A program made the translations under genes and the position numbers. From NCBI RefSeq assembly GCF_022846255.1, contig NZ_AP025682.1: a stretch of DNA of 64,000 bases. One strand, given 5' to 3'. Origin of the DNA: Escherichia coli. GTDB taxonomy: Bacteria; Pseudomonadota; Gammaproteobacteria; Enterobacterales; Enterobacteriaceae. Below are positions 7,323 through 62,904 of the stretch, piece after piece; position 1 is the stretch's first letter, and each line of letters begins with the position of its first letter. The notes beneath the pieces were generated by a model. The model did not search any database. It saw nothing but the letters and a program-made list of their open reading frames with translations, and was not told the DNA's origin.

Positions 7323-7539
7323 ATGCATGTGCTTAACATTCTCTGGGTGGTATTCGGCATTGGCCTGATGCTGGTACTGACAATGACCGCAGGTTCAGAC
7401 ACATTCCCTACATTAGCAATGCCTCTTAGATTACTTTGACCTGTCAGTAAAAGACACGTTGAAAACCTGGGGTCTGCTGGAGCTGGTCAACTCCGTGGTT
7501 GGGCTGATTATTGTGCTGATTATTAGCATGGTAGCGTAA
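7323..7539 (+). pseudogene. gntP: gntP-family gluconate permease remnant with a large internal deletion (N-terminal ~38 codons and C-terminal ~33 codons, out of frame)
   Basis: Start region MHVLNILWVVFGIGLMLVLTMTAG hits TGA at 7437; a different frame from 7441 encodes ...[28 protein letters not shown], resembling the GntP-family C-terminus; K-12 carries a full ~1.3 kb gntP between fimH and uxuA. Confidence 0.55.
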
Positions 7540-7549
7540 AAGAGCACCT

Positions 7550-7711: not shown

Positions 7712-8614
7712 TTATTGATAAACAAAAGTCACGCCAATAATCGATTGCACATTCCCTGCAGTCACCTGCCCTCCGGTACGTGCGTAATTTGCCGTTAATC
7801 CCAGACTTACCGCCGAAGTCCCTACTGCTCCTAACGATACCGTGTTATTCGCTGGAATAATCGTACCGTTGCGCGTCAACTGTACGCCGACGCCCTGCGC
7901 GGGTGAAAACGACGCGGTATTGGTGAAAATCGAGTTGCCCGCATCTGCGGTTGTGCCGGATAGGTAATACCCCAGGTTTTGGCTTTTCGCACAATAAACG
8001 GTAAGAGGAATCGGCACTGAACCAGGGTAGTCCGGCAGAGTAACGGTGACATCACGAGCAGAAACATCACAGCCGCCAGTGGGCACCACCACATCATTAT
8101 TGGCGTAAATATTCCACACAAACTGGAAATCATCGCTGTTATAGTTGTTGGTCTGTCGCAAAATAAGCACGGCAATTAATGAGCCAGCTTTAATCGCCAC
8201 TCCCCCCGCACTGCTCACCGGCGTCAAATAAAGCGCCACCGGCCACGGCTTATCCGTTCTCGAATTATAAACAACCCGCGGCGTTTCGCTGGTAGTAGGG
8301 AAAGGATAGCTACTGCCATTATATTTTACGGTCCCGGAAAAACTAGATAACACACCGCCATAAGCCGAACCTCGTTGCAGTGTGACATAGTCTGTAATGG
8401 TTTCTGGGTAATCGTTATGGCAAAAGATTTGCGTCGAAAGATCTACGACCAGGTTTTGCCCCACATTCACGGCAGGCGCAAGGTTTACATAAACATTGGC
8501 GCTGCCACCGCCAATAGGGATTGCGGTACCATTGGCGGTTTTACAGGCGAATGACCAGGCATTTACCGACCAGCCCATCAGCAGTACAGCAAACAGGGTA
8601 ATAACTCGTTTCAT
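7712..8614 (-). CDS. fimH: Type 1 fimbrial mannose-binding adhesin FimH (300 aa from MKRVITL)
   Basis: Near-identical to recalled FimH (signal peptide, FACKTANGTAIPIGGGSANVYVNLAP lectin domain, C-terminal ...GVTFVYQ); last gene of the fim operon. Confidence 0.95.
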   Translation of the reverse strand: MKRVITLFAVLLMGWSVNAWSFACKTANGTAIPIGGGSANVYVNLAPAVNVGQNLVVDLSTQIFCHNDYPETITDYVTLQRGSAYGGVLSSFSGTVKYNGSSYPFPTTSETPRVVYNSRTDKPWPVALYLTPVSSAGGVAIKAGSLIAVLILRQTNNYNSDDFQFVWNIYANNDVVVPTGGCDVSARDVTVTLPDYPGSVPIPLTVYCAKSQNLGYYLSGTTADAGNSIFTNTASFSPAQGVGVQLTRNGTIIPANNTVSLGAVGTSAVSLGLTANYARTGGQVTAGNVQSIIGVTFVYQ

Positions 8615-8633
8615 TACAATCATCTCTTTGGGT

Positions 8634-9137
8634 TCAGCTGTAGGTATAGGTGATGCTAATCACTGCCTGAATGGTTCCCTGAGTGGCTCCACCATTTACG
8701 GTCAATGCTCTGACCTGTAACGGGAAGTGCGCTGATTGTGAGGAATCATCCACCTGAACTGTTTTGGTTGCGCCAGTATTCAATGTGTTGCCACTGTCAT
8801 CCTGTAGCTCTAACTGGATGTTTTGCGCGGTCCCCTGATTTTTATAATATCCGGTACTGTCGGCTGCCCCGCTGAAGCTGGCAGTGACCCTCGACGTTCC
8901 CACCGGACAATGAGTCAACTCAAGCGCAACATCATGCCAGGCCGATGCCGCCCCGGCAGACATCAGACTGAAAGAATAAAGATCGCCGAGATCTACCGTG
9001 GCATTGGTGGTGGAAACCGTACACGGTTTGGCGACGACCTTACCGTTAACCGTGATGGTGACATCGGCTGCCTGTATCGTCGCACTTGCGAGCGCCAATA
9101 TTGCCGCCAATACATACCCACGTTTGCACCATTTCAT
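8634..9137 (-). CDS. fimG: Type 1 fimbrial minor subunit FimG
   Basis: 167-aa pilin-like protein starting MKWCKRGYVLAAILALASATIQA; fim operon synteny. Confidence 0.9.
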   Translation of the reverse strand: MKWCKRGYVLAAILALASATIQAADVTITVNGKVVAKPCTVSTTNATVDLGDLYSFSLMSAGAASAWHDVALELTHCPVGTSRVTASFSGAADSTGYYKNQGTAQNIQLELQDDSGNTLNTGATKTVQVDDSSQSAHFPLQVRALTVNGGATQGTIQAVISITYTYS

Positions 9138-9149
9138 GAGCATCTCCAG

Positions 9150-9680
9150 TTACTGATATTCAAGAGTGAAGGTAGCCGTGGCATTGATATGCCCCGCAGT
9201 GACAGGCACCTGTGTCGCCATTAGCCGGGCGTAAAAATTCAACGTATTTGGTTTACCCGGCGTCAGGGTCGTCCACGAAATCGCGGACGATGGGGCATTA
9301 AGGGGTATCTCATTTTGCTGCTCATTCAGAAGCTGTATTCCCAGTCCCGCAGCCGCTGACACCGTATTTTCAAGTGCAAGCAGGTTGGCATTGTGGCTAT
9401 CTGCAACGCCAGTAAACCCAACCTTTACGGCAGAAACAGCGTTACCACAGGGTGACAGCAAAATACGAAATGGAACGACAGGAGTCGTCGCACCAATGTT
9501 GTTAAATTGCTTCGCCGCGTTTTCCATCAGATCAACAGTAAAATTGGTTGATTCAGCGGCCACACTACAGCCATTATCTCTGACATAGCCGCGGATAGTA
9601 ATCGTGCTATCCGCAGCCAAAGCGTGACTTACCGCCAGCCACAAAAAAGCGCAAAGAAGATAAAAAGGTTTGTTTCTCAT
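9150..9680 (-). CDS. fimF: Type 1 fimbrial minor subunit FimF
   Basis: 176-aa pilin-like protein starting [22 protein letters not shown]; fim operon synteny. Confidence 0.9.
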
Positions 9681-9689
9681 CACGCCCCC

Positions 9690-12326
9690 TTAACGACATT
9701 CAGCTGATAGCTGGGTTAATAACTGCTGCTGACTCTCTGGTGGCAGTTGATAATTGGCGACACAGTGAGCATTTTCCTCTTCTCCCCATTTCACCTGCAC
9801 TTTTCCCGCTAAAGGCATTCCGCTGAGGTAAACCTGACCATTATCCGCAACAATGCCGCTACTCTGGCTACTCTCTGATGTCACCATCGCCCCAAACGGC
9901 AGCGGCTTATTATTGTGGGTTAGCGTCATGAGCAGTTTTATCCCAACGCGCGCTTTAAACTCTGCTCGCACGATCGCCCCACGGGTGGGAACAACGTTAG
10001 CGACCGCGTTATCTAAATCGACGTTATCAGCCAGGGTATTGGTATCCAGCGCTACTCTGTTTTCCCGATATTCAGTGGCATAAGGCAGCACGGCATAACC
10101 GCGCCAGTCGGTACGCACCCCCGTCTGGTTTTCGACTTTTGCATCTTTTGCGCCAGGCGCTTTAACAAGCACCACCGTATCGTTTAACGGCTGCCCCAGC
10201 GTTACGCCATTGGCATGAGCCAGTACCCCACCGCTGACTCCGTAATAGAGCTGCTTAATATCATCGCTATGGCTGTAACCGATATTGGCATTGCCGTAAC
10301 CACCGCGATAATTCAGCGTGGCGTAGCCTGTACTTCCGCTATTACCATCGCCTCCCCCGGCATAGCCGGTTTGCACGCTATAGCTGAGGTTGTTGTCTTC
10401 CAGCAACGTACCGTATACACCAGCCAGATTGGTCATCCGACCGTTGAGATCGTGTGACATGCTGTAGCTGGCACTGGCATGTCGCCACTGAGATTTACTG
10501 TCAGAACGCAGCCAGTGGCTGAAAGGAATATTGACGTTAAGCGCTAACATCTGATCACGTCCTTTTTGCCAGGCGTTTTTCGTCAGGCTATAGCTGAGCG
10601 TCCAGTTAATATCTTCGAACGCAGTATTTAATCCAGCCTGGAATTGCTCATCGACATTACTCGTTCCCCAATAAGTTTGATGGCTACCACTCAAATACAG
10701 TGTTGATGTGCGCCCGAGTTGCTGAGTAACGGTGAGTTGTAATTTCCCGCGTTTGTTATAAGCGAGATTGTAATAGTCGGTGAATTTCGGCTTAACCTGA
10801 ATAACACCATCCTGTGTTTCGATGTTGTAGCCATTCATTCGACTGTATGTTGTATCAGCGAAATTAAAATACCCACTGGTCGAATAACGGTAACCCACTA
10901 ACTGAATATTCGTGCCTGACTCATTGAGCGATTTGTTATAGAGAAAACGCACCGATTGTCCGTCATGCTGACTGTCATCGGGAAGTGTGGAATTAGCCTG
11001 CGTCATATCCACAGACAGAGCGCCCAGTGCCCCCATGTTTTTCCCGATACCGAAATTAAAAGCACGATAACGATCCGCCAGTTGCGTTCCACCATATATT
11101 GTCCAGCCAGCCGGAAGGCCGTGGAGTAATGTACTCTGGAAAAAGCGGGGTTTTTCCTGTTGCGCATTTCCACTACGGTATTCTCCTGCCGTAATGGAAT
11201 AACGTGTATGCCCTTCACGCTGCAAAAGCGGGACTGACGAATAGGGTACGGTAAAAATCTGCGTACTGCCGTCAGCCTCTTTAATCGTTACCTGCAAGTC
11301 ACCACTATTACCTGCGGCATAGATATCGTTGATGGTAAAAGGCCCCGGTGGCACCGTACTATTATAAATGTCATACCCATTTTGTTTAATAGTGACCTGT
11401 GCAGTACCACGAGCAATACCGTGGATCACCGGGGCAAATCCTCTTTGGCTATCGGGTAACATATTGTCATCTGAGGCCAATTGTGCGCCGCGAAAGTTAA
11501 TACCATCGAAAATATCGCCCTGAGTATAACCATCACCCAGCGTCAGCCGGGAACGTAACGGAATTATGTCTCGCTCAAGCCAGGTATTGATATGCTGCCA
11601 TTTATTTTTGCTACCTGATGAACTGTCGCTACTGTTATAACTCCAGGTGGTATTGTCGCGTAAACGCCACGCACCAATATTTAACCCACTCTGTAGGTTT
11701 AAATATGCATAATGGCTGTTACCCCCAATTCGATTCTGTACACTATTTCCGCTGAAATTATAATTGAGCAATCCGGCATTAATACCGGGATCCCATAACT
11801 CAGGAGGAATATAACCACGCGCGCGATTACTCATAAATGCCTGAGGGATCGTCAGGTTGAGTCGCTGCTGACCCACATCCAGTTGCGCAGTAGCGTCATG
11901 GATCATTGAGGTTAATGGCACGCAGGCATCATCCGCCAGCAGATTCATACCGGAGACAGAAGCCGTATTCAGCCCCATACTGGCAAGTTGCGCGCGTGTC
12001 AGGCAGGGAACAATCCCTTGTTCGCTGTCGCCCGTATTAAATGTGACATCACGCGTTGCCATATAACCATTATTCAAATAGATATCAACACGATACGTCC
12101 CTGGCGGTAATTCTTGCCCATTTTCAAAACGCGATAAATCAGCCACAGCCTGGGGATCATCCGCTAAAAAACGCGGGTTAAAATAGAGTTCGGCAGATGA
12201 CAAAGGTGCCTGTGCGGCAAAAGCACAGGCAACAAAGAGTCGGACAAAAAAACCAGCCAAACGATGCTTACGAATATGCAAGCATTGTGTGTTTCGCTGG
12301 TAAAGTCTTAAATTCAGATATGACAT
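9690..12326 (-). CDS. fimD: Type 1 fimbrial outer-membrane usher FimD (878 aa)
   Basis: 878-aa ORF matching recalled FimD essentially along its length. Confidence 0.95.
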   Translation of the reverse strand: MSYLNLRLYQRNTQCLHIRKHRLAGFFVRLFVACAFAAQAPLSSAELYFNPRFLADDPQAVADLSRFENGQELPPGTYRVDIYLNNGYMATRDVTFNTGDSEQGIVPCLTRAQLASMGLNTASVSGMNLLADDACVPLTSMIHDATAQLDVGQQRLNLTIPQAFMSNRARGYIPPELWDPGINAGLLNYNFSGNSVQNRIGGNSHYAYLNLQSGLNIGAWRLRDNTTWSYNSSDSSSGSKNKWQHINTWLERDIIPLRSRLTLGDGYTQGDIFDGINFRGAQLASDDNMLPDSQRGFAPVIHGIARGTAQVTIKQNGYDIYNSTVPPGPFTINDIYAAGNSGDLQVTIKEADGSTQIFTVPYSSVPLLQREGHTRYSITAGEYRSGNAQQEKPRFFQSTLLHGLPAGWTIYGGTQLADRYRAFNFGIGKNMGALGALSVDMTQANSTLPDDSQHDGQSVRFLYNKSLNESGTNIQLVGYRYSTSGYFNFADTTYSRMNGYNIETQDGVIQVKPKFTDYYNLAYNKRGKLQLTVTQQLGRTSTLYLSGSHQTYWGTSNVDEQFQAGLNTAFEDINWTLSYSLTKNAWQKGRDQMLALNVNIPFSHWLRSDSKSQWRHASASYSMSHDLNGRMTNLAGVYGTLLEDNNLSYSVQTGYAGGGDGNSGSTGYATLNYRGGYGNANIGYSHSDDIKQLYYGVSGGVLAHANGVTLGQPLNDTVVLVKAPGAKDAKVENQTGVRTDWRGYAVLPYATEYRENRVALDTNTLADNVDLDNAVANVVPTRGAIVRAEFKARVGIKLLMTLTHNNKPLPFGAMVTSESSQSSGIVADNGQVYLSGMPLAGKVQVKWGEEENAHCVANYQLPPESQQQLLTQLSAECR

Positions 12327-12391
12327 TATTCCTCCGGTTTAAATCACCCGGCAGTCAATTCTTTTTATTCAGGCGAAAAAATCCCCCTGCG

Positions 12392-13117
12392 TTATTCCAT
12401 TACGCCCGTCATTTTGGGGGTAAGTGCGCCATAATCATTTATTGTTCGGTAAGTAATATTGCTTCCTGCATCAGAAGGCAATTTAACCGCGCTTTCGCCC
12501 ATTGGAGGCACCAATGCATTTTCAAGAACCCGAGTTCCGGCATTCAACTCTGTTACCGTCAGGTAATAGGGTGTCGGGTTGATCAGCGTCAGAGAATTCG
12601 CGCTACGACGAAATCTTAATTTTTCTGCGGCCTGATCGGGTGGCAACGCTAATTTAGCCGGACGATAGTACAGTTTAATGCGGCTGATAATTGCGAGCTG
12701 TAGCGTATTCTCAGTCAATTTTGATTTATCCATTGACGGAATCGCTTTAACATTCATCCAGAATAAACTTTCCCGATCCTGTGGCAATTGGTTATTTGTT
12801 GCATCAAGAATACGCAAGGTATTCTCTTTTTTTCCCTTCATCGCAAACAGAGGTGGCGTCACGATAAAACGGCCATCCTTTACACCATCGGCATTTTCTA
12901 CCCATGATTGAATTAAATAGGTGCTATTTTCATCATTATTTGTCACGGCAAGTTGCACTTGTTTTTGCCCTGCCGGATAAATTACGCGAGTCGCACCTAA
13001 GGCCACTCCCGCTTCAGCGCGTCCGGCAACCATCATTGCCATGAACATCAGGATACCTGCCAGCAAGCAGAATGTTATTTCCTGCGATTTCCTTACATTG
13101 ACGTTTTTATTACTCAC
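12392..13117 (-). CDS. fimC: Type 1 fimbrial periplasmic chaperone FimC (241 aa)
   Basis: PapD-like chaperone with signal peptide; length and sequence as recalled for FimC. Confidence 0.95.
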   Translation of the reverse strand: MSNKNVNVRKSQEITFCLLAGILMFMAMMVAGRAEAGVALGATRVIYPAGQKQVQLAVTNNDENSTYLIQSWVENADGVKDGRFIVTPPLFAMKGKKENTLRILDATNNQLPQDRESLFWMNVKAIPSMDKSKLTENTLQLAIISRIKLYYRPAKLALPPDQAAEKLRFRRSANSLTLINPTPYYLTVTELNAGTRVLENALVPPMGESAVKLPSDAGSNITYRTINDYGALTPKMTGVME

Positions 13118-13153
13118 TGTCCTGTTCCTGTTATCACATTATCTGCTGAACAA

Positions 13154-13693
13154 TTACTGATAGGTTAAAGAGAACCAGGCCTGGGCATTGGCGATGCCGC
13201 CAGTAACCCGACGCCCGGTAGCACGATATTTGGCGATGAAATGTAGCGAAGTAGAGCCTGAGTAAAGCCGTTTCCAGTTTACTGGAGGACGATTAATCGG
13301 TACGAGGTTTCCTTCATCATCAAACAACGCTACGCCAATATTGGTGGCTATCCCTGGCCCCTCTCCCACGGAAAGCACATCCGGATTTTTACCATCCGCG
13401 ACACCGTGAAACGCCACACCCACACGTTCACTCACCACCGTGCTACATTCCCGTAAATGAATAACAAAAGGCACCGGTGAGCTATCTTCCCCTACCGCAT
13501 GAAACCGGTTACTGCTGATTTGCCCCATATTGACCGTCATTTGTTTATCACCGGCTTCAATCCGGCAAGCTTCCGCAATAATGACGCCCTGAAATTGCAT
13601 ATTTCCGCCGGGCAGCGTGGTATTCCATTTATTTCCGGCCAGAGCAAACATTGGCAGCAACGACGCTAACAGAAATAATCTCTTCCTTTTCAT
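13154..13693 (-). CDS. fimI: Fimbrin-like protein FimI (179 aa from MKRKRLFLL; an upstream in-frame start at 13825 is possible)
   Basis: Pilin-like protein with signal peptide [19 protein letters not shown]; lies between fimA and fimC. Confidence 0.8.
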
Positions 13694-13757
13694 CGTTATT
13701 TTTATCGCACAAGGGTGGGCATCCCTGCCCGTAATGACGTCCCTGAACCTGGGTAGG

Positions 13758-14312
13758 TTATTGATACTGAACCTTGAAGGTCGCATCCGCATTAGCAGCA
13801 CCTGGGGTTGCAGCACCGGTTGCAAAATAACGCGCCTGGAACGGAATGGTGTTAGTACCGTTATTCAGGGTTGTTTCTGCACTAAATGTCGCACCGTCCA
13901 GCGTCAGCTCATTACCTGTTCTGTCCAGAATCTGCACGCCAACGTTTGTTGCGCTACCCGCAGCTGAACTCTGTAGAGCCAGGACTTTAGGATGAGTACT
14001 GTCAATCGCCGTCCCCAAGAAGGCAACAGCGGCTTTTGTGGCAACAGTGGTATCGCAATCATTCAGCTGAATGTTAAAACCGACAGCAGAGCTGGTTGCT
14101 CCAGCCTGCTTCAAAGTGGCGGTACGAACCTGGCCCAACTGAACGGTTTGATCAACAGAGCCTGCATCAACTGCGCAAGCGGCGTTAACAACTTCCCCTT
14201 TAAAGTGAACGGTCCCACCATTTACCGTCGTGGGTGTAGTATCAGCCAGAGCCGCTGTAGAACTCAGGGACAGAGCCGACAGAACAACAATTGCCAGAGT
14301 TTTAATTTTCAT
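13758..14312 (-). CDS. fimA: Type 1 fimbrial major subunit FimA (184 aa allele)
   Basis: [23 protein letters not shown] signal peptide and C-terminal ...ATFKVQYQ; FimA is known to be allelically variable. Confidence 0.95.
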
Positions 14313-14431
14313 ACTGCTTTCCTTTCAAAAAACTATTTCTAAATCGACATGGGCAGTCGTTCTGTACACTTTGTTTTGTCAACGAGTTTGACTGCCAACA
14401 CTGCACAGTTTTCCCCCAAAAGATGAAACAT

Positions 14432-14745
14432 TTGGGGCCATTTTGACTCATAGAGGAAAGCATCGCGCACAAACTTTTTCAGTTTATTTGTTGGCTTAAT
14501 GTTCTATGGTTATCTTTATTTGCAGTTTTTTATATTGCATGAGGTGGTTTTTGGAGAGAAGAATGAGGAAGTTGCGTCGAGCTACAGAAACGTTAGCTTT
14601 ACATATAGCGGAGGTGATGTGAAATTAATTTACAAGAGAAATAATTTACATATCAAACAGTTAGATGATTTTTGTCGTTTTTTAATATTTTTATGCTTGA
14701 GAAAAAATACGTAACTTATTTATGATATAGACAGTTTGGCCCCAA
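14432..14745. promoter_or_regulatory. fimS: fimS invertible phase-variation switch (314 bp) bounded by 9-bp inverted repeats
   Basis: TTGGGGCCA at 14432-14440 and its inverted partner TGGCCCCAA at 14737-14745, spacing 314 bp, between fimA and the tyrosine recombinase genes fimE/fimB. Confidence 0.9.
14697..14727 (+). promoter_or_regulatory. fimA sigma70 promoter inside fimS, pointing away from fimA (phase-OFF orientation)
   Basis: -35-like TTGAGA (14697-14702) and -10 TATGATA (14721-14727), 18-bp spacer, on the plus strand next to the fimE-proximal inverted repeat; fimA is on the minus strand at lower coordinates. Confidence 0.55.
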
Positions 14746-14792
14746 TTGTCTTGTATTTATTTATTTTTTAAGTTTATTATCAATAAGTTAAA

Positions 14793-15389
14793 TCAAACTT
14801 CTTCTCTTTTTAATTTTTCGTTTATGAGATTATTTCTTTCCCATAATCCGGCAAAACGAGCAGCATTACTGGCGGTATAACGCACAGTATGGCGAATATT
14901 TCGATGCCCGAGATAATCCTGAATTAAACGGGTATCTGCACCACGCTCCGCCAGTTCATAACCGCAAGCATGCCTTAACATATGAGGATGAGTCTGCGTT
15001 ACGGTTCCAGCTTCAATACCGGCATCGCGAATAATGCGATAGGCCTGCTGGCGAGAAAGCCGACTCCCGCGGCGAGAAATAAATATAGCGTCGGTCCGGT
15101 CAGCACCTTTCCAGTTAGCACGTTCCTGGGTCCAGCGTTCCACAGCTTCACGCTCATCAAAACGTAACGGGTGAACGGTAGAAAATCCGTTCTTCAGTCG
15201 GCGAATATTTATTCGACCTTCATTAAGGTCAAGATCCTGATAATGCAGATCAAGCAGTTCACTAATACGCATCCCATGCCGATATGCCAACAGAATAAGA
15301 CAATAATCTCTGGCTCCCGTTGCCCCGTAACACACCGCCTGCATCATGGCCTGAACTTCTTTACCGGTAAGATAACGACGTTTACTCAC
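14793..15389 (-). CDS. fimE: Tyrosine recombinase FimE (fim switch ON-to-OFF recombinase), 198 aa
   Basis: MSKRRYLTGKEVQAMMQAV...; C-terminal R..HxxR..Y catalytic region (HPHMLRHACGY, LGHRNIRHTVRYT); matches recalled FimE. Confidence 0.95.
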   Translation of the reverse strand: MSKRRYLTGKEVQAMMQAVCYGATGARDYCLILLAYRHGMRISELLDLHYQDLDLNEGRINIRRLKNGFSTVHPLRFDEREAVERWTQERANWKGADRTDAIFISRRGSRLSRQQAYRIIRDAGIEAGTVTQTHPHMLRHACGYELAERGADTRLIQDYLGHRNIRHTVRYTASNAARFAGLWERNNLINEKLKREEV

Positions 15390-15866
15390 AATAGTAGTAC
15401 TCCTGACTGAGATATATTTGAATGAATACCTATAGGAAACCTCAATCGGTCAAAATTAGCCCAATAGATAAAAAGATAACCACACACGAAGTGATGTGGC
15501 TATCAGTCAATTACATTAAATATCATACAAAAATAAAATATCACTGATGTGACAACATCTATTTTCATTGATTTGATTCAATATAACAATAGATTGCAGT
15601 GGATTAACTTCCAGTTGCTTAAAAAATAAAGAAAAAAGTATGAAAACAGGCGAATTTAAGTGATGTGTAAATTTATGAATGATTTTGTTTATTTATTTTG
15701 AAGAACATAAACCATTGTATTTTGTATGGATATGGTTAACTTAATGTTTATTATGATAATTAAGAATCATACTTACAATAACATCAATTAATAAATGGTT
15801 AATCATTTTTGATATATCGTAAGAATAATGTAGTTTTTAACACCATCCCTGGTATCTCAACTATCT

Positions 15867-16469
15867 CTATAAAACAGCGTGACGCTGTCGTCCTCTGGCT
15901 CTATCCCAGATGCCGTAAAAACGCCCTGCATTGCTGGCGGTATACCAGACAGTATGACGAATATTGCGATGTCCAAGATAATCCTGGATAAGTCGCGTAT
16001 CTATTCCCATATTCGCCAAAGCAAAACCACACGAATGGCGTAACATGTGCGGATGAATCTCCAGTGACAACCCGGCATTACCACCGGAAGTCGAGATAAT
16101 ATGGTAAAACTGTTGCCGAGAAAGTGGATTCCCCTTACGTGATAAAAATACCCACTCGCTCTCAGCATGCGGATAAGAAGTACGGATACTCAACCAGTTT
16201 TTTAAAGCCTGAATTTCTTTGTTCAATAGCGGGTGCGTTGTTGAAAAGCCTTTTTTTAATCGATGGATATATATACACTTTGCCTTAAGATCAATATCCG
16301 AAATCCTCAATCGGCAAATTTCACTCGCCCGGAAACCATGAATAAAACAAAGTAATGTCAGACAATAATTACGTGCAGCATGAGGCCCGGTATTTGCTGC
16401 TTTAAGGAGTGATTCGATTTCACTATGGGTCAGGAAGTTCCTTTTTTTGTTATCAGCCTTATTCTTCAT
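15867..16469 (-). CDS. fimB: Tyrosine recombinase FimB, 200 aa
   Basis: MKNKADNKKRNFLTHSEIESLLKAAN...; paralogue of FimE with the same catalytic motifs. Confidence 0.95.
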   Translation of the reverse strand: MKNKADNKKRNFLTHSEIESLLKAANTGPHAARNYCLTLLCFIHGFRASEICRLRISDIDLKAKCIYIHRLKKGFSTTHPLLNKEIQALKNWLSIRTSYPHAESEWVFLSRKGNPLSRQQFYHIISTSGGNAGLSLEIHPHMLRHSCGFALANMGIDTRLIQDYLGHRNIRHTVWYTASNAGRFYGIWDRARGRQRHAVL

Positions 16470-17494
16470 CGTTTTCCCTTATAATTACAGACGCGCACTA
16501 GCTGTGCTGGGTTAGCAATAATCCAACATTTTAATCCTGATTATGTTTATAAAAGCGAACGTTTGCTTAATAACTAACGTAAGTGGACCAGTTCTTCTGA
16601 GTGAACTTAAATGGAGTAGCGATAGTTACTTATAATAACTTTGCCATACAAACGCCATGCTCTTGCATGCTATGTATCTTTATATATTTATCAATCTGAT
16701 ACGAATCGAATAATAACCCTCATCATTAATGCAACTAATCTTATCTATATATCATGTGATATGTTCTGTAACAAGTAAAATCAACATAAAAAATTCAGCA
16801 AAATTTAATATTTGTTCAACTAGCCGTCTCACATATGACATTATTAGTCAACTGCATTTGCCACAAAATGGCTATTTCATGGAACACAGTAATTTCTTAG
16901 TGGCTATTATCATGCTAATGCTTAGGTCCCTAGCGATTATTCCTGCCTGGTTCGTCAGCTTACGCCATGAGATTGTTACATTCCTTTTTCAGACTGTGTA
17001 TTTCCTGGAGATATGGGGGAACGCAGGAGACGCTTTTTCATCTACATTCGTTGGTAAATATGGCTTTGGTCACTGCGACTTAAACCTTCCTCAATCACAG
17101 CTATTCGCCGGGCGATACGGCAAACAAACTATCTGAAACATCATCCTGAAAACACCAACATCTACAAGCCTTTCCAGATCGACTTCAGGGATGACCACTT
17201 ACAAGCCAAAAACCAGGAAACATATTTCATGATGAGAATTATGATCAGCCTGATGGCGGGTAAACACTTATTTTCACCACGCTCACTGAGTTAGCTTGCA
17301 AAGCTTCCCTTGTTTAGACCCTAAATAAATCATTTATAAAACAAATAGTTAAAAGAATGCCTTTAGTTTTTGAAGACCACCTCAAGTGTTCGTCTGGCTT
17401 CACATGGCATCTTCCTCTTAGAAAAAGATCGACATATTTTGTGACACGAATTGCAAATCTCGTTTTGTTGTATGGATTGCGTGATTTTTGATCT

Positions 17495-17514
17495 GGTATA
17501 ACAGGTATAAAGGT
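17495..17514. promoter_or_regulatory. Putative NanR operator (GGTATA repeats) in the fimB-nanC intergenic region
   Basis: ggtataacaggtataaaggt contains tandem GGTATA hexamers, the recognised NanR binding motif, about 420 bp upstream of nanC. Confidence 0.5.
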
Positions 17515-17933
17515 GCACCGCGATAGTCAATGAGACAGGGCATCTCGCAATCTATGGCAAACATCACTTCAGTTCTTTCTCATCGGGTGATGAAAACGCA
17601 CTTCAGTCTGAAAGGAATATGAAAATGAGATCAACAGACACTCTATTTTATGACTCTGGGTAAAATGGATTGAGTAAGTGATATAGCTTACAAACATTCA
17701 AATCAATTAAACATCAGAAGAGATTTTATACTCAGGTATTTAATCTGGTTCTCTGTTTATTTAAATAATGTGGAAAGAGAATTTTCACAGGAGACCTTAT
17801 ACAAAAAATATAAAATACAGCTACTCGTTGCCAAAGACACTATAAGCCTGGCAAAAAATATTACACAACATAAATGCTAATTGTTTATGCGGGCTTTGTA
17901 TTGCTTTCTGTATCCTACAAATGAGTGAAATAT

Positions 17934-18650
17934 ATGAAAAAGGCTAAAATACTTTCTGGCGCATTATTACTGTGCTTTTCGTCACCACTGATTTCTCAGG
18001 CTGCGACACTGGACGTACGTGGTGGATATCGTAGTGGAAGCCACGCCTATGAGACTCGACTCAAAGTCAGTGAGGGATGGCAAAATGGATGGTGGGCAAG
18101 TATGGAAAGTAATACCTGGAATACCATTCATGATAATAAAAAGGAAAATGCCGCACTCAATGATGTTCAGGTGGAAGTTAATTACGCGATTAAACTTGAT
18201 GATCAATGGACGGTGCGCCCGGGAATGTTAACGCATTTTAGCAGCAACGGCACACGCTACGGACCCTACGTAAAACTGTCCTGGGACGCGACAAAAGATC
18301 TTAATTTTGGCATTCGCTATCGTTACGACTGGAAAGCTTACCGACAACAAGACTTATCCGGTGATATGTCTCGTGATAACGTTCATCGTTGGGATGGATA
18401 TGTCACTTACCATATTAATAGTGATTTCACCTTCGCATGGCAAACGACGCTATACAGCAAACAGAACGATTATCGCTATGCAAACCATAAGAAATGGGCG
18501 ACGGAAAATGCATTTGTTCTACAATACCATATGACGCCCGATATTACGCCATACATAGAATATGACTACCTTGACCGTCAGGGTGTTTACAACGGCAGAG
18601 ATAATTTATCGGAAAACAGTTATCGCATTGGTGTGTCATTTAAACTGTAG
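17934..18650 (+). CDS. nanC: N-acetylneuraminic acid outer-membrane channel NanC (KdgM family)
   Basis: Signal peptide MKKAKILSGALLLCFSSPLISQA; ~238 aa beta-barrel-type sequence ending in an aromatic residue; followed by nanM and nanS. Confidence 0.85.
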   Translation: MKKAKILSGALLLCFSSPLISQAATLDVRGGYRSGSHAYETRLKVSEGWQNGWWASMESNTWNTIHDNKKENAALNDVQVEVNYAIKLDDQWTVRPGMLTHFSSNGTRYGPYVKLSWDATKDLNFGIRYRYDWKAYRQQDLSGDMSRDNVHRWDGYVTYHINSDFTFAWQTTLYSKQNDYRYANHKKWATENAFVLQYHMTPDITPYIEYDYLDRQGVYNGRDNLSENSYRIGVSFKL

Positions 18651-18669
18651 TAGACAGGAGACAGTCACA

Positions 18670-19776
18670 ATGAATAAAACAATAACAGCGCTTGCTATCC
18701 TAATGGCTTCATTTGCCGCAAACGCGTCTGTATTACCGGAAACTCCTGTGCCATTTAAAAGTGGTACCGGAGTAATTGATAACGACACTGTCTACATTGG
18801 TTTAGGTAGCGCTGGTACGGCATGGTACAAGCTGGATACACAGGCCAAAGATAAAAAATGGACAGCGTTAGCTGCATTCCCTGGCGGACCGAGAGATCAA
18901 GCAACCTCTGCATTTATTGATGGCAATCTGTATGTGTTTGGCGGCATTGGCAAAAACAGCGAGGGCTTGACTCAGGTATTTAATGACGTACACAAATACA
19001 ACCCCAAAACCAATAGCTGGGTTAAATTGATGTCGCACGCGCCGATGGGCATGGCGGGCCATGTGACTTTTGTACACAACGGCAAGGCTTATGTTACTGG
19101 CGGTGTTAACCAGAATATCTTCAATGGCTATTTTGAAGATCTCAACGAAGCTGGAAAAGATTCAACCACTATAGATAAAATCAACGCCCACTATTTTGAC
19201 AAAAAAGCAGAAGATTATTTCTTCAATAAGTTTCTGTTGTCTTTTGATCCCTCTACACAGCAATGGAGTTACGCTGGCGAATCTCCCTGGTACGGAACGG
19301 CTGGTGCGGCGGTTGTGAATAAAGGTGATAAAACCTGGCTTATTAATGGCGAAGCCAAACCAGGATTGCGAACGGATGCCGTATTTGAACTTGATTTCAC
19401 CGGTAATAATTTAAAATGGAATAAGCTTGCTCCCGTCGCATCACCAGATGGCGTCGCTGGCGGTTTTGCAGGCATGAGCAATGACTCACTTATATTTGCC
19501 GGAGGGGCCGGATTCAAAGGTTCACGAGAAAATTACCAGAACGGTAAGAACTATGCGCATGAAGGCCTGAAAAAATCATATAGCGCTGATATTCATCTTT
19601 GGCATAACGGGAAATGGGATAAATCAGGCGAATTATCGCAAGGTCGGGCCTACGGAGTATCATTGCCCTGGAATAATAGTTTATTAATTATTGGCGGTGA
19701 AACTGCAGGCGGCAAAGCGGTGACGGATTCAGTTTTGATTTCTGTGAAGGATAATAAAGTCACAGTACAAAACTAA
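18670..19776 (+). CDS. nanM: N-acetylneuraminate mutarotase NanM (Kelch-repeat, 368 aa)
   Basis: Start at MNKTITALAILMASFAANA (the upstream track ORF overlaps nanC and is rejected); Kelch-type repeats (GG...LYVFGG, AYVTGG). Confidence 0.9.
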   Translation: MNKTITALAILMASFAANASVLPETPVPFKSGTGVIDNDTVYIGLGSAGTAWYKLDTQAKDKKWTALAAFPGGPRDQATSAFIDGNLYVFGGIGKNSEGLTQVFNDVHKYNPKTNSWVKLMSHAPMGMAGHVTFVHNGKAYVTGGVNQNIFNGYFEDLNEAGKDSTTIDKINAHYFDKKAEDYFFNKFLLSFDPSTQQWSYAGESPWYGTAGAAVVNKGDKTWLINGEAKPGLRTDAVFELDFTGNNLKWNKLAPVASPDGVAGGFAGMSNDSLIFAGGAGFKGSRENYQNGKNYAHEGLKKSYSADIHLWHNGKWDKSGELSQGRAYGVSLPWNNSLLIIGGETAGGKAVTDSVLISVKDNKVTVQN

Positions 19777-19782
19777 CGCTTC

Positions 19783-19815
19783 AGGGCCCCGGTAAAGGGG
19801 CCCTGCTATCAATTT
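19783..19815 (+). terminator. GC-rich hairpin between nanM and nanS (possible attenuator or terminator)
   Basis: agggcccc-ggtaaa-ggggccct perfect 8-bp stem immediately after the nanM stop. Confidence 0.4.
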
Positions 19816-19840
19816 GTCATTTGTATTACGCGAAAATTAT

Positions 19841-20821
19841 ATGAACGCAATAATATCGCCCGATTATTACTATGTTCTTACCGTTGCTGGTCAGTCTAAT
19901 GCCATGGCGTATGGCGAAGGACTACCATTACCGGACAAGGAAGATGCGCCTCATCCCAGAATTAAACAATTAGCGAGATTTGCGCATACACATCCCGGAG
20001 GCCCGTCATGTCACTTTAACGACATTATTCCACTGACTCACTGCCCACACGATGTTCAGGATATGCAGGGTTATCACCATCCTCTGGCAACGAATCATCA
20101 AACACAGTACGGCACCGTTGGCCAGGCACTGCATATAGCACGGAAATTACTGCCCTTTATTCCTGATAATGCAGGGGTTCTCATCGTTCCGTGTTGCCGT
20201 GGCGGATCGGCTTTTACCGCGGGCAGCGAAGGGACATATTCAGAACGGCACGGAGCCAGCCATGATGCTTGTCGTTGGGGAACGGATACTCCGCTGTACC
20301 AAGATTTAGTCAGCAGAACGCGAGTCGCACTGGCAAAAAATCCGCAGAACAAATTCCTCGGCGTATGCTGGATGCAAGGCGAATTTGACTTAATGACCAG
20401 TGACTACGCGTCACACCCTCAACACTTTAATCATATGGTTGACGCCTTTCGTAGGGATCTAAAACAATACCATTCTCAGCTTAATAAAATTACTGACGCG
20501 CCGTGGTTTTGCGGCGATACCACCTGGTACTGGAAAGAAAATTTCCCTCATGCGTATGAAGCTATTTATGGCAATTATCAAAATAATGTTTTAGCCAATA
20601 TTATTTTCGTCGACTTCCAGCAACAAGGTGCAAGAGGACTGACGAACGCGCCTGATGAAGATCCAGACGATTTAAGCACGGGATATTACGGTTCAGCGTA
20701 CCGGTCACCGGAGAACTGGACGACGGCACTGCGAAGCAGTCATTTCAGCGCGGCAGCCCGTCGGGGGATTATTTCTGACAGGTTTGTAGAAGCAATTTTG
20801 CAGTTTTGGCGCGAAAGGTGA
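19841..20821 (+). CDS. nanS: 9-O-acetyl-N-acetylneuraminate esterase NanS (326 aa from MNAIISPDYYY)
   Basis: SGNH-type esterase motif (VAGQSNAMAYG); matches recalled NanS/YjhS; third gene of nanCMS. Confidence 0.9.
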   Translation: MNAIISPDYYYVLTVAGQSNAMAYGEGLPLPDKEDAPHPRIKQLARFAHTHPGGPSCHFNDIIPLTHCPHDVQDMQGYHHPLATNHQTQYGTVGQALHIARKLLPFIPDNAGVLIVPCCRGGSAFTAGSEGTYSERHGASHDACRWGTDTPLYQDLVSRTRVALAKNPQNKFLGVCWMQGEFDLMTSDYASHPQHFNHMVDAFRRDLKQYHSQLNKITDAPWFCGDTTWYWKENFPHAYEAIYGNYQNNVLANIIFVDFQQQGARGLTNAPDEDPDDLSTGYYGSAYRSPENWTTALRSSHFSAAARRGIISDRFVEAILQFWRER

Positions 20822-20875
20822 GCGTTCATTAATTTGATTTATTCGCATCCATCAACGCTTTTAACTGCTCCGGCG
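20695..20875. repeat. Left copy of a diverged direct repeat (nanS 3' end plus downstream flank) bounding the defence island
   Basis: High similarity to 53494-53661 (shared tail ...ttcattaatttgatttatt[c/t]gcatccatcaacgcttttaactgctccggcg); the right copy lacks ~16 bp. Confidence 0.7.
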
Positions 20876-21660
20876 TGCGGCACTATAATGGTTTTCACAA
20901 CAAGGAGCCATTTTCTTATACCACTTTCAGAGACCATCCGCTTATGCCACCGCCCTCTACGCAACTGTTTGCAGAGCACCTTCCCACCGAGTGGATACAG
21001 CACCTCCTGACGCTTTCTGCTCATGCGACCATTTGTCGTCTTAACCTGAGCGCGGATGGCGAAGCGGGGATTAGCCTGCTGGCCCGCAGCGCTGTCACCC
21101 AGGAGCGCCAGCGCGTGGGGGCCCCCTGGTGGAATGGCTCTTCCGCCAGACCGCACAGACATGGGGCGCGGAACGTTACCTGAAGGATGACTGGCACGGC
21201 CTGCAACTTTTTGCCATTGATGGCGCACAGTTCAGGACACCTATGAACCTGAGTTGCGCGAATATTATGGCTCTGCCAACACATCCACTGAGCGGCAGAG
21301 CGCCTACCCGGTCATGCGTCTGGTGGCGTTAATGAATCTGGGAATCACATTCTGCTGAATGCCATGACCTCGGCCTACCGGCGGAGCGATACAGCGTGAG
21401 GCAACTAAAGCGGCGTCAGAAATCAGCTTTAAGTTCGCATTCCAGTTTATCGTGACAGAAATGATAGTGCAGGGAAATACGGCGTCACCAGGAACCATCC
21501 CGAAACGGCTGGAGCATCTGCGGGGTGCTCTGGAAGCGGTGTTCCCACGACTATCAAGGCCGAGGGCTGTTAAGGTATCAAAAACCCGTTATCCGGTGAA
21601 ACACAGTGCCGCCCCGCTTAAGTGACGGCATTGTGTTTCTGACTGGCCTTAACTTTCCCT
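20876..21660 (+). mobile_element. Degenerate IS4-family transposase remnant (frameshifted and internally deleted)
   Basis: Broken frames encode ...PPPSTQLFAEHLPTEWIQHLLTLSAHATI..., ...WLFRQTAQTWGAERYLKDDWHGLQLFAIDGAQFRTP... and ...PGTIPKRLEHLRGALEAVF..., resembling an IS4-type DDE transposase; no intact ORF. Confidence 0.45.
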
Positions 21661-21794
21661 GAATCTCTGACGATCCTCACCATTGATATTTTCTTCATTC
21701 CTCACCAGAGAAATAAAAAATCACTATACTCATCAAAATATGAGATTACATTTATTCAGGCGATCACCTTACTATTTTATACGGAAAATAAATC

Positions 21795-22445
21795 ATGAAT
21801 ATCCGTCAATCATTACATGACCGAATCTATGCAGAATACCCTCAACAGGCTAAAGATATATTACTGTATTTCCCCACTTATGAAATTATGCCATCGACCA
21901 TAAAAATGGTTATGATTAATGAGGTGGTAGCTATAACACCGCAAGAAGATTTTTATACACCAGAGTCTGGTTATTTTACGACTGTCGCCCGACAGTTAGC
22001 GCTGGCTGGATTATCGGCAAGTAGTGGCGAAGTCTTACTCAACCATGGTATCTACCTGACCTCCGCACTGAAACTACCTAAAACACAGATCACAGCCACA
22101 CCCGCGGAGATCATTCTCTGGTCACCTATTGTAGAATGGGAGCTCGAACTCTTTGCCAATATAAAAGTTATTTTCGTTGGCGGCGATATCGCGCGAAAAT
22201 GCCTTAACATCATCGCGAAAAAGCAAACACGTAAACATGCCATCCCTTCAACTCCGACGTACAAACTGATGAATAGCGAATTAGTCTGGAAAGGAATAAG
22301 CATACTTCCTGGATATATTCTTACCGGAAAAAACCTGCTCATTGAAAAGTCAAAAATCGAAATGAATGTCGAACAATTAAGAAAAGGAATTGCGATTTAT
22401 CGCAATAGTAACAGTAACCATACGAATAATTCAGTTCATGAATAA
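21795..22445 (+). CDS. Hypothetical protein (216 aa), AT-rich orphan gene
   Basis: Intact ORF with AT-rich composition unlike its neighbours; no motif I can assign confidently. Confidence 0.45.
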   Translation: MNIRQSLHDRIYAEYPQQAKDILLYFPTYEIMPSTIKMVMINEVVAITPQEDFYTPESGYFTTVARQLALAGLSASSGEVLLNHGIYLTSALKLPKTQITATPAEIILWSPIVEWELELFANIKVIFVGGDIARKCLNIIAKKQTRKHAIPSTPTYKLMNSELVWKGISILPGYILTGKNLLIEKSKIEMNVEQLRKGIAIYRNSNSNHTNNSVHE

Positions 22446-22916
22446 GAGATGAATCATTAATAACAAGAAATCACTGACAAACCACCTGTAAAAGGTCAAT
22501 CATTTTAGTTCAATTTCCTTTGTCATGATTATATTTTTATCGTCCTGACGATACTATTAACAATTACAATATTTATACCCTCCCCTGAACAAACAGAAAA
22601 GAACTCATACATTCGTTTATAATTCTGGTAATCCTGGCATCATACGTTTAAAATTTAAGGTGTTTGTTTTATAATCATGATTCCAAAGACTATTGGTCAC
22701 CAGAAAATGCCAGCCTTTTCGTGCCAGCTATATTTGTCCAGTGTGTTACCCCATCCAAAAATCATCCACATCCTGATGTTACGTTAGATATAGAGAAAAC
22801 AGGTTGTACTGTGCAATATGCTAACCGCATAAGCGAATATAATTTCTAAGCTGATATTGTCTGGCTGTTGGGAGCTAAACAATATAAATATCGCCAGTTG
22901 CCAGAACGGTTATATA

Positions 22917-22942
22917 GACCAGGAGCGTTTCGGCTCCTGGTC
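22917..22942. terminator. Hairpin in the convergent intergenic region between the orphan ORF and the UvrD-like gene
   Basis: gaccaggagc-gtttcg-gctcctggtc 10-bp perfect stem; could terminate either convergent transcript. Confidence 0.35.
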
Positions 22943-22958
22943 TGTTTCGGACATATTA

Positions 22959-25073
22959 TCAATCAGCCACTAATAGCGGACTAGGGATACCAGATGATGA
23001 AACAAACAGCCCTTTTACGGCACGGGTTGCAGCCACATGCAGTAACGCGCGCTCATTAAATAATGCATCACGCTGTTCAACGGGATCATCGGATGCTAAT
23101 GCTTTTATTTCCGGCACAACGCCTTCGTTAATCCCCACCAGGAACACATACTGGAACTCAAGCCCTTTAATACGGTGCATCGTTGCAACTCGCACGCCTG
23201 GGCGTTCATCGCTGTCACCGCTATCATTGCCTAAATTAAATGTCTCAATTCCGGCGTCATTGAGTGCTGATGCGTAGCGGTCGCAAGCATGTTTAGTACG
23301 CGCAGTAATGCAGATATCCTGAGAACGAACCTGACTCGCCAGCAATGCCTGAATTTGCTTGACGAGTGTTGCAGCCTCTTCTTTGAAATCTGCCGCATGC
23401 GTAATCATGGGCTTTTCCCCGTGCAGTAATGACAAATAATCATTACTGGTATCCGCTTCGCCATCGAGGTTATCAACCTTCACACCAGTTAACAGCCCAA
23501 CAGCAAATTGACGCGTCTCTTCTGTGGTCCGATAGTTAATCTTCAATTTTTTACTGCGACGACCACGGACGTTAATACCACACTGACCAAGAACGACCTT
23601 ATTGCGATAAATACGCTGATGCCCATCCCCGACAATAAACAGATCGTTGGGCGACTCGGGAACCAGGCTGCGAATAAGAGTAAATGCCGGGGCACCGATA
23701 TCTTGAGCTTCATCGACGACAATACTGCTATAAGGTAGTTGGACCTGCTTTTCTTTAAACAGAACAATAGCCTCATGCATGGCATCGCCCATTTCGCGCA
23801 GTTTGGCACGCGCCATTTGTGCTCTGAATTCTTCGAAAACTGGCCAGATTTTCGCCCGTTGAATACGGGATAACGCTGTACCACGTCCAACCCGGCTGAC
23901 TTTGAGGTATTCCTCCCGGGTGTAAACCGCATTTGGCTGGACAACGCGTTGCCACTCTTCAGCATAGAAATTGTCAGGTAGCCCCAGTTCGGCAGGTGCC
24001 TGCTGCAAGGCATAGTTCCAGCATTTACGTCGCCCTTCATCGCTGTCGTATACCACGCGGAAATCATAACCGTGGCGTTTTAGTTGGTCGCTCATCCAGG
24101 CATCAATGTTAACGACGTCAATACGCGCCATCTCTTCTCGCGTACACAACCGCTGGAGATTAGCGCGAATATCTGCCGCCAGGTTACGCGTAAAGGTCGT
24201 GAAAAGTACCTTCTTACCGGGTTTATCTGCCAGACGCTGAGATAACCACCGCGCACGGTGCATTGCAACAACCGTTTTCCCTGTACCTGCACCGCCCAGT
24301 ACTCGTACCGGACCATTAGCGGGCGACTCCACCAGTTTTCGCTGGCTCGGATGCAGAAATACACGCCATTTTTCTAAAGGCGCATTAAGCATCTGCAACA
24401 GCTCCTGTTCATTTTCAACGACATGGAAGCGACGTTTACTTCGTTCAATCGCCTCCATAAAGTCGTTGGTATCAACAGGCTCGTCACGATGATCGTTAAA
24501 CTCTTCCAGCACTTCCTGGTAATCCAGCCCTTCTGCCAGCCAATGCAGGGGTTCCCAGGCTTCTGCTGGCATTATGCTTTCAAGTTGATTAAGCCCGGCT
24601 TCATCGGTAAGCGCCATCACCTGATCAATAAAGACAGGCGGCACACCCAGGGCCAGAATCTGTTCCGCGCTGTAAGCTGCGAAGAGTTTCGGTTTATCTA
24701 GCACCGTTTCCGCCGCCGGTTTGATATAGCTAATATCAATAACCTGAATTGCGCCGGTAACCGGGTGAATTGAACAATCATGCCGCCGCGCCCAGTCGTA
24801 TGCTTCGTCGTGTTTATCCACCCACATCAGCATATACAGGGCACCCTGTTCAGGTTTCAGAACAATGCCGCGATAAGTTTGATCGATTCGCACCGAATGG
24901 ACATTTTTACTGCGCGCATCGTGGATCTTTTCATAGTTAAGTCCATTACTGGTCGGGTCCTGACGGAATTTGGAGATGAATTCCTGCACCTTTTTTTGCT
25001 GTGCTTTTGGGATCCGCGCGAATGCGCCCAGAAAACCATCAGAAAGTGCCACCTTGGGCGTTTGCACCGTCAT
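22959..25073 (-). CDS. UvrD/Rep-like superfamily 1 helicase with a ~200-aa N-terminal domain of unknown function (704 aa)
   Basis: Walker A GGAGTGKT, motif II VVDEAQD, C-terminal UvrD-like motif (MHRIKGLEFQYVFLVG); start overlaps the upstream gene's stop (ATGA). Confidence 0.8.
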   Translation of the reverse strand: MTVQTPKVALSDGFLGAFARIPKAQQKKVQEFISKFRQDPTSNGLNYEKIHDARSKNVHSVRIDQTYRGIVLKPEQGALYMLMWVDKHDEAYDWARRHDCSIHPVTGAIQVIDISYIKPAAETVLDKPKLFAAYSAEQILALGVPPVFIDQVMALTDEAGLNQLESIMPAEAWEPLHWLAEGLDYQEVLEEFNDHRDEPVDTNDFMEAIERSKRRFHVVENEQELLQMLNAPLEKWRVFLHPSQRKLVESPANGPVRVLGGAGTGKTVVAMHRARWLSQRLADKPGKKVLFTTFTRNLAADIRANLQRLCTREEMARIDVVNIDAWMSDQLKRHGYDFRVVYDSDEGRRKCWNYALQQAPAELGLPDNFYAEEWQRVVQPNAVYTREEYLKVSRVGRGTALSRIQRAKIWPVFEEFRAQMARAKLREMGDAMHEAIVLFKEKQVQLPYSSIVVDEAQDIGAPAFTLIRSLVPESPNDLFIVGDGHQRIYRNKVVLGQCGINVRGRRSKKLKINYRTTEETRQFAVGLLTGVKVDNLDGEADTSNDYLSLLHGEKPMITHAADFKEEAATLVKQIQALLASQVRSQDICITARTKHACDRYASALNDAGIETFNLGNDSGDSDERPGVRVATMHRIKGLEFQYVFLVGINEGVVPEIKALASDDPVEQRDALFNERALLHVAATRAVKGLFVSSSGIPSPLLVAD

Positions 25074-36345: not shown

Positions 36346-36347
36346 GA

Positions 36348-48700: not shown

Positions 48701-49103
48701 CACAAGCCAGTGTATGCAGATAACCCGAAGCTTGCCCCAGGTTTCTTATCTTTCTTTTCCAGTAGCGAATGCCATCATTAACCAGCTTCTGTTGATGAAC
48801 ATACGGAACTTTCCAGTCAATAGAATCTAAAATTGTGTCCCATTTAGGGTGTCCGACCGTATGAGTCCGGCGGATAAACTCTGCGGCATATATGCTAAAT
48901 AGAACATCGCTATAGGAAATGAATATCGTTCTTGGATAACTACGGGGGGCATATGTACGCAGTAGTTCTGCCAAACTTTCGTACTCTGTATCAGTACAAC
49001 GGTAAGCATATAACGCCCGTCCATCAGCTCCGGATAATGAACGGCGACTAAAAAACATGTTAAGCCATTGCAAAAGTGGGTTAACTGGAGTTTTCACAAG
49101 CAA
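45744..49103 (-). CDS. druH: Large protein without recognisable motifs, consistent with Druantia type III DruH (1119 aa)
   Basis: Assigned only by size, absence of known motifs and tight coupling upstream of the DruE-like gene. Confidence 0.5.
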   Translation of the reverse strand: MLVKTPVNPLLQWLNMFFSRRSLSGADGRALYAYRCTDTEYESLAELLRTYAPRSYPRTIFISYSDVLFSIYAAEFIRRTHTVGHPKWDTILDSIDWKVPYVHQQKLVNDGIRYWKRKIRNLGQASGYLHTLACEGGLPIRMIENESGYLITYFRRIYQALRGQASQYPAAKIAQELGDTIPVTMQNELVYEIAGEFCETLCRLLSEHPPQSSDPVSALRKLSPDWHLQLPLVLPEANAAEIVRRLLSQSSEIRSASSLQVERIWVDVDDSWYCDARFRFPAIMRTEQLTSLFECNIQPEQTRLIISGKWRNGGARLAMLSRYEQQDWRVELLPIAMQKLSGADAMAEISLSLHEGPILLGHTIPKGGYELTEELPWVFEAMNESESQLKLVGMGSVSSRLNALFISLPKNSHLDISGEGEFDIPRLLKNSERSLTKISGVFSVVLHDGAVCTIRTQQLYDSAIEYYIKSTEVELVKSDYPVHRAWPKIGWKKDLQYGIVPEKELFWRSIRSGNNAWYSVASEMPKGQIEVRRIVNDEVLFSGKVVVLPTDFDINIIPESAQQGIIMLSGITDTRIDKYSNNEKVTLKSDYSQNECAIYYNSSEMLENTVDLRVSWKDGSNLKLLLPKPVSGGRFVTHDGSVHFDGVASIAHLHGIDAELLTISCAGRGYLNIELLDENPVAEKFRYLHADLPLLSGCNDKLKQISLYENYNLLNAMLACAWNSNSTLCVDFYSDRFGKDKATLSIKRYDGSFIEHDQGLLVDIKNSVVFPANRIDELVVDAISLKDPGLHISLLKKDEFAYDLSALNVQDSPWLIVGKLDGTARIAPVIKWGLPVLQTNDLLLNALCEADSEQRKKYFNELIFEIDNNPLQNYCCLLTEYIKKYKMNNGLSLLDLDLFRGISSNYRVVVQLLISSCLSGDSDTIYDIQEELPFSWGWIPVSIWKDVFQKCWAYLEKQINDKTLALHILQPFIAFMNHRAHIDRRLAPIANMLLTYGELLPAGCNVLPTVSREQFNEAKQMLLRNPDSFGRISIFPKELWSSAITPELKSVFNKLWIEDKYHSRLEKRFNLMLVAALLTQKDNNLIHQLSALFEFHYQQAPQQLGVIYQYYFEQAGVCH

Positions 49104-49314
49104 CCTGCCTTCCTTTGATACAATTCGTAACAGGTTACTATCATCATAAAAAAGCTCAACCCGATGAACTCGCTAAAAATGAGACAAATCATTTATATCT
49201 CGAAAAAACTTGTTACAATCATGAGCGCTACACCGAACTTAACCATATAAATTATGTGTGTTTTGTTTATTTTTTAAACAATTACAACTATCCATTATTT
49301 ACACAGGTATCAAA

Positions 49315-50967: not shown

Positions 50968-50973
50968 TCGATC

Positions 50974-51681: not shown

Positions 51682-51684
51682 GAG

Positions 51685-56372: not shown

Positions 56373-56498
56373 GTTTATCTTCCTTTTTTAACTGATTTTA
56401 CAGGGACTTTAACACAGTAAAAATTTTATTTCCTGAGCTGTAATCGATTAAGCTGATGCATTCAATGGGAATGATATCACCTAAAAAGCACATTATGA

Positions 56499-57554: not shown

Positions 57555-57566
57555 CTCATATCAACC

Positions 57567-62003: not shown

Positions 62004-62005
62004 AC

Positions 62006-62902: not shown

Positions 62903-62904
62903 AA

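Follow-up and report, generated by a model that had tools for sequence, protein, structure and literature searches.

The fimS phase switch in the OFF orientation, with intact parts, in an Escherichia coli genome assembly

Introduction

Since 1985 the fimS element of Escherichia coli has served as a textbook example of how inversion of a DNA segment produces phase variation, and a fimS phase switch in the OFF state, as found here, is biology already known. In this mechanism, a 314-bp segment carrying the fimA promoter is inverted at two 9-bp repeats by two recombinases, FimB acting in both directions and FimE mainly from ON to OFF. Both proteins bind half-sites that overlap the repeats, with IHF, Lrp and Fis shaping the synapse and the directional bias (PMC9993118, PMC9096935, PMC11316696, PMC6458436). 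The mainly ON-to-OFF role of FimE has been described (PMC9096935, PMC11316696), and FimE activity predominates, with most cells being non-fimbriate (PMC9096935). With the switch ON, the promoter reads over the fimA-side repeat and through a leader of 119 nt into fimA. With the switch OFF, as in the window, it fires toward the 3' end of fimE and leaves fimAICDFGH without a promoter; fimE is then joined to a Rho-dependent terminator inside fimS, which affects FimE production (PMC9993118, PMC9096935, PMC11316696, PMC6458436).

Among the described loci, the reference sequence of the uropathogenic strain UTI89 (NC_007946.1) has fimS OFF (PMC6458436), and the switch of O157:H7 Sakai is locked OFF (PMC6765310, PMC8605689). 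We compared these two loci, K-12 MG1655 (NC_000913.3; fimE b4313, fimA b4314) and a natural phase-ON assembly, FHI_NMBU_03 (NZ_CP019455.1), with a 64-kb stretch of E. coli DNA (the window, in whose positions all coordinates are given). We consider it very probable that 14432-14745 is the canonical invertible promoter switch of type 1 fimbriae, in the OFF orientation, with intact parts, probably functional and sampled in its majority state.

Anatomy of the fimS region

The element spans 314 bp (14432-14745). It is bounded by two exact 9-bp inverted repeats, the fimA-proximal IRR TTGGGGCCA at 14432-14440 and the fimE-proximal IRL TGGCCCCAA at 14737-14745, the latter being the exact complement of TTGGGGCCA. 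The ORF map places it between fimE and fimA, upstream of fimAICDFGH, in the same order as in K-12, Sakai and UTI89, and the 480-bp fimE-fimA intergenic region contains it. A sequence-only reading had described a 314-bp element between these repeats, with fimE on one side and fimA, on the minus strand, on the other; all of its coordinates were correct and the ORF map bears out the layout.

When aligned with fimS of K-12 MG1655, the window was collinear and had 302 of 314 bases in common (96.2%), with both repeats and both promoter hexamers unchanged. The best database matches to a 701-nt query across the switch reached 99.7% identity. The identification as fimS is based on this homology to a characterised element (302/314 against K-12) and not on motif statistics. 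MG1655 resembles the window in the 314-bp length of the element, its repeats, position and OFF orientation, the hexamers and FimE, and differs from it by 12 substitutions in fimS, by one residue of FimB and by the fimA allele (184 aa in the window, 182 aa in K-12).

The genes around the switch are all on the minus strand. FimB, a tyrosine recombinase that can flip fimS either way, is encoded by a 200-aa ORF at 15867-16469. It is identical to UTI89 FimB and carries one substitution (V86I) relative to K-12 FimB, and its homologues are annotated 'type 1 fimbria switch DNA invertase FimB'. FimE, the tyrosine recombinase that inverts fimS mainly from ON to OFF, is encoded by a 198-aa ORF at 14793-15389. 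It is identical to K-12 FimE, whereas UTI89 FimE differs from it in the last residue (A198V). On the other side, a fixed leader of 119 nt (14313-14431) leads from fimS to the start codon of fimA, which encodes the major type 1 fimbrial subunit (13758-14312; a 184-aa ORF identical to UTI89 FimA). The rest of the operon lies at 7712-13693 in the ORF list and comprises fimI, fimC (12392-13117), fimD (9690-12326), fimF, fimG and fimH (7712-8623), an order shared with the Sakai and UTI89 loci as annotated. In MG1655 the small RNA fimR2 is annotated directly after fimA; its counterpart stretch in the window is at about 13700-13757 on the minus strand, 3' of the fimA stop codon.

Predicted promoter and regulatory sites

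A consensus scan of 14250-14950 gave as its best sigma-70 match (10 of 12 positions) a plus-strand site at 14697-14726, which we regard as the putative fimA promoter: TTGAGA (14697-14702), an 18-nt spacer and TATGAT (14721-14726; TATGATA to 14727). It adjoins the fimE-side repeat and reads toward fimE, away from fimA, at the positions and on the strand that had been noted for it from the letters alone. The element thus carries a predicted outward-reading sigma-70 promoter near one of its repeats. This stretch is AT-rich, and the two sigma-70-like sites found in it compare with 2.3 expected from shuffled sequence, so that the hexamer match on its own is not above chance and proves nothing. The second site (TTGATA-18-TAAATT, 9 of 12) is a weak promoter-like sequence on the minus strand (14656 to 14627); it is inside fimS, points toward fimA in the OFF orientation and is within chance expectation. 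No intrinsic terminator was found in 14250-14950.

The -35 and -10 hexamers were the same in all six loci compared, including K-12, O157, UTI89 and the phase-ON strain. We take TTGAGA and TATGAT to be the -35 and -10 hexamers of the fimA promoter, with transcription presumably starting near A14733, a few bases before IRL. Olsen and Klemm reportedly assigned the fimA promoter hexamers and start site in 1994, and our literature search showed that the papers citing that work do not restate the hexamer or start-site coordinates. In one study the GrpQ site is numbered -219 to -191 relative to a 'transcriptional start site' (PMC11724981). We dropped this reference point as start-site evidence; when computed for the ON orientation, it falls at approximately the start codon of fimA.

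We then placed the binding sites of the accessory proteins on the window. The IHF consensus has nine matches in the whole 64-kb window, and two of them are at the switch. The first, a candidate for IHF site I (TATCAATAAGTTA, 14778-14790, plus strand), is an exact match to WATCAANNNNTTR and lies outside the element, adjoining the fimE-side repeat; IHF-1 has been placed adjacent to IRL (PMC9993118). The second, TATCAAACAGTTA at 14651-14663, marks a putative IHF site II (14645-14673, plus strand) and lies within the GrpQ footprint. The published footprint, TTACATATCAAACAGTTAGATGCTTTTTG, overlaps IHF site II (PMC11724981), and the window differs from TTACATATCAAACAGTTAGATGCTTTTTG by one base. At the other end of the element, we placed a Fis/LRP-2 binding region at 14480-14500. 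Its 8-bp core, the target of published mutagenesis, is at 14487-14494, where the mutagenic primer FBSFOR2 and the wild-type sequence match the window.

Orientation of the switch

The RefSeq annotations of MG1655, Sakai and UTI89 contain neither a fimS feature nor a note on its orientation, and therefore annotation could not settle the orientation. Instead, we chose tests that are independent of the earlier promoter call. Two published orientation assays were run in silico, with primers and fragment sizes taken from the original reports (PMC4349694 and PMC9993118). Each uses a restriction site that is unique, HinfI (GACTC) at 14445-14449 and BstUI (CGCG) at 14464-14467.

HinfI digestion of the Phase_L/Phase_R amplicon gave fragments of 358 and 201 bp for the window, compared with a published OFF band of 359 and ON band of 489 (PMC4349694). 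BstUI digestion of the OL20/OL4 amplicon gave 539 and 188 bp, compared with 539 and 187 for OFF and 433 and 293 for ON (PMC9993118). UTI89 yielded the same fragments as the window in both assays, and MG1655 also showed the OFF pattern (359 and 201 bp with HinfI, 540 and 188 bp with BstUI). The pattern of Sakai was OFF too, 16 bp shorter. The natural ON control, FHI_NMBU_03, gave 75 and 484 bp with HinfI and 293 and 434 bp with BstUI, and its promoter is on the fimA-sense strand. Furthermore, the primers of a published 135-bp probe (PMC9993118) are convergent and 135 bp apart in the window, and they gave no product in the ON control.

Two further lines of evidence were examined. In the OFF orientation the Fis site has been described as lying 50 bp from the right-hand repeat, at the promoter-distal end (PMC9993118). 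In the window, about 50 bp separate the Fis/LRP-2 site from the fimA-side repeat, in line with the published OFF arrangement, and the predicted promoter lies at the end opposite this 'promoter-distal' site. In addition, the window is collinear across the switch with UTI89, O157:H7 Sakai and MG1655. UTI89 shares with the window the orientation, the in-silico fragment sizes, FimB and FimA, and Sakai shares the orientation and the repeats.

The fimS element of the window is in the OFF orientation, because the HinfI pattern, the BstUI pattern, the position of the Fis site and the collinearity with references stated to be OFF all agree; nothing that we found contradicts this call. In this orientation fimA is cut off from its promoter. 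The sequence-only reading had called the switch phase-OFF and proposed a check against reference ON and OFF sequences. In that comparison the window matched the OFF references (UTI89 and Sakai) and the ON control was opposite, and the reference alignment did not reveal a fimA promoter elsewhere in the element directed at fimA.

We also weighed whether the true fimA promoter might be elsewhere in fimS and point at fimA, in which case the sequence would really be phase ON. The minus-strand TTGATA-18-TAAATT site does point toward fimA, but with two sites found and 2.3 expected it is within chance expectation. The two restriction assays, which are calibrated against fimbriation phenotypes, give OFF for the window, and its sequence is collinear with those of UTI89 and O157, which have been published as OFF and locked OFF, respectively. 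Moreover, the promoter end is the one opposite the Fis site (PMC9993118), that is, the TTGAGA/TATGAT end. An ON reading of the window is ruled out by the in-silico HinfI and BstUI patterns, and we give a promoter elsewhere in the element practically no chance.

Inversion and integrity of the switch

The natural ON assembly shows what inversion of this element looks like. FHI_NMBU_03 has the same flanks, FimB and FimE as the window, and its interior is the reverse complement of that of the window except for two bases. When the window was flipped in silico anywhere from 14432/14745 to 14441/14736, only two mismatches to FHI_NMBU_03 remained; outside this range the mismatches rose. This equal fit indicates that the natural breakpoints lie within the 9-bp repeats. 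The FHI_NMBU_03 allele was also present in the orientation of the window, in Z1323HEC0016.

Because all of its components are intact, the switch of the window is most likely functional, and we infer from the sequence that this strain would actually switch. The competing explanation is that the switch is genetically locked OFF, as in O157:H7 or in the enteropathogenic strain E2348/69, and not merely sampled OFF. The OFF orientation is what a lock would give, and there are sequence differences on which such a lock might depend: fimS departs from the K-12 sequence by 12 substitutions and has, at 14537-14538, a GC dinucleotide that is absent from the two closest genomes. A lock could also arise without a deletion, as E2348/69 is reported to be kept OFF via Fis (PMC9096935). 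However, the 16-bp deletion of Sakai, which is reported to lock the switch OFF, is not present in the window. Alignment with Sakai shows that the corresponding stretch (14665-14680) is retained, and fimS measures 314 bp here compared with 298 bp in Sakai; an O157-type lock was rejected on this ground. The two 9-bp repeats match exactly, the window shares its FimB with UTI89, in which switching has been demonstrated (PMC6458436), and its FimE with K-12, and an allele only two bases away is found naturally in both orientations. We therefore regard a genetic lock as very unlikely and a functional switch as the better explanation.

A related possibility is that substitutions alter the switching bias or the strength of the promoter, so that the strain would favour OFF to an unusual degree even with intact recombinases. 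Two differences are candidates, the GC dinucleotide at 14537-14538 and the A at 14729, where K-12 has G, three bases after the -10 hexamer. We judge such an effect to be highly improbable.

Orientation among complete genomes

To obtain a base rate, we searched 5426 complete E. coli genomes with the 701-nt query and scored colinear matches over at least 80% of it. A genome in the opposite orientation covers at most 55% of the query per strand, and the 80% criterion consequently separates the two states. The region was matched in 4720 of the 5426 genomes. It was in the orientation of the window in 4458, colinear over at least 80% of the query, and in the opposite orientation in 250, as scored with the same query with 14432-14745 flipped. 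OFF-like elements hence make up 94% of the complete genomes that carry the region and about 95% of those that were scored, in agreement with the published predominance of FimE (PMC9096935).

Given the practice of consensus assembly and the 4458:250 ratio, it is a reasonable inference that the sequenced culture was mostly OFF. Under the mechanism described above, the switch would have been caught in its majority state, with cultures containing active FimE being mostly OFF and the assembly reporting the majority orientation. Real cultures are heterogeneous for fimS, and mixtures have been documented at the level of reads (PMC6458436); the culture might accordingly have been a substantial mixture of ON and OFF cells from which the assembler picked one orientation arbitrarily, in which case the assembly would say little about the population. 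Consensus callers follow the majority, though, and the proportion of OFF genomes (94% of those carrying the region, 95% of those scored) fits both an OFF majority in usual growth and the dominance of FimE (PMC9096935). An arbitrary orientation is thus unlikely, if less so than a lock, and we favour a culture that was mostly OFF.

These counts, 4458 OFF-like and 250 ON-like among 4720 genomes, provide a base rate against which the orientation of fimS in an assembly can be judged. Deposited genomes usually show OFF, and the present finding is correct but ordinary, its value being mainly for annotation. Although fimA is promoterless as assembled, the switch is intact, as are both recombinases, and the assembly should therefore not be taken to mean that fimbriation has been lost.

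Other features of the window

Next to the fim operon, between uxuA and fimH, the window holds a remnant of gntP (7324-7540). What is left is the start of the gene, ~19 codons (MHVLNILWVVFGIGLMLVL), and its last codons (...VLIISMVA, stop); about 1.1 kb between them is gone. This junction was found in 847 complete genomes, NU14 and APEC O18 among them, and is therefore characteristic of a lineage, not a product of misassembly. In UTI89 only a small partial CDS is annotated where gntP would lie.

A dense anti-phage defence island is located to the right of nanCMS. Beyond nanM, UTI89 lacks the island with Druantia, Zorya and Wadjet systems that is found in the window, and at least 80% of window positions 13000-33000 was present in 447 of the 5426 genomes. 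A Druantia type III system occupies 39430-49103 on the minus strand, where DruH3 (1119 aa) and DruE3 (2107 aa) are full-length PADLOC matches (E = 0). Beside it, also on the minus strand, are four large genes (22959-39206) with no clean fit to one named system. They encode a DrmD-like SNF2 helicase (952 aa), a type IIG restriction-methylase-like protein (1644 aa), a second DruE-like helicase with DEAD and MZB domains (2113 aa) and a UvrD/GajB-like helicase (704 aa). O157 Sakai has an 'RNA helicase' and a 'DNA helicase' of equal sizes (2113 and 704 aa) beside nanS, annotated as part of the phage-like element SpLE6.

On the plus strand, 49258-52788 contains a Zorya type II system with strong PADLOC matches for ZorA2, ZorB2 and ZorE2. 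In the minus-strand block at 55374-63909, a PDC-S11 candidate defence gene (55374-56372) is listed ahead of a Wadjet type III system with JetD3 (56499-57554), JetC3 (57567-62003) and JetA3 (62905-63909). The 298-aa ORF in the JetB position (62006-62902) had no match, and the listed JetA3 ORF covers only positions 155-488 of a model 488 positions long. Between Zorya and Wadjet are a truncated second NanM-like kelch protein of 202 aa (52999-53607), which covers profile positions 1-145 of 350, and a lone HNH endonuclease (54334-55263). These two look like debris of the insertion of the island beside the nan genes.

At the opposite end of the window, 44-2425 on the plus strand encodes a 793-aa multidomain PTS protein with EIIA-Man, HPr and enzyme I domains. 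The gene content beyond uxuR, including this PTS gene, is unlike the layout in O157 Sakai. In UTI89 the corresponding position, beside dhaL/dhaK, is taken by a gene of 2382 bp with the annotation ptsP.
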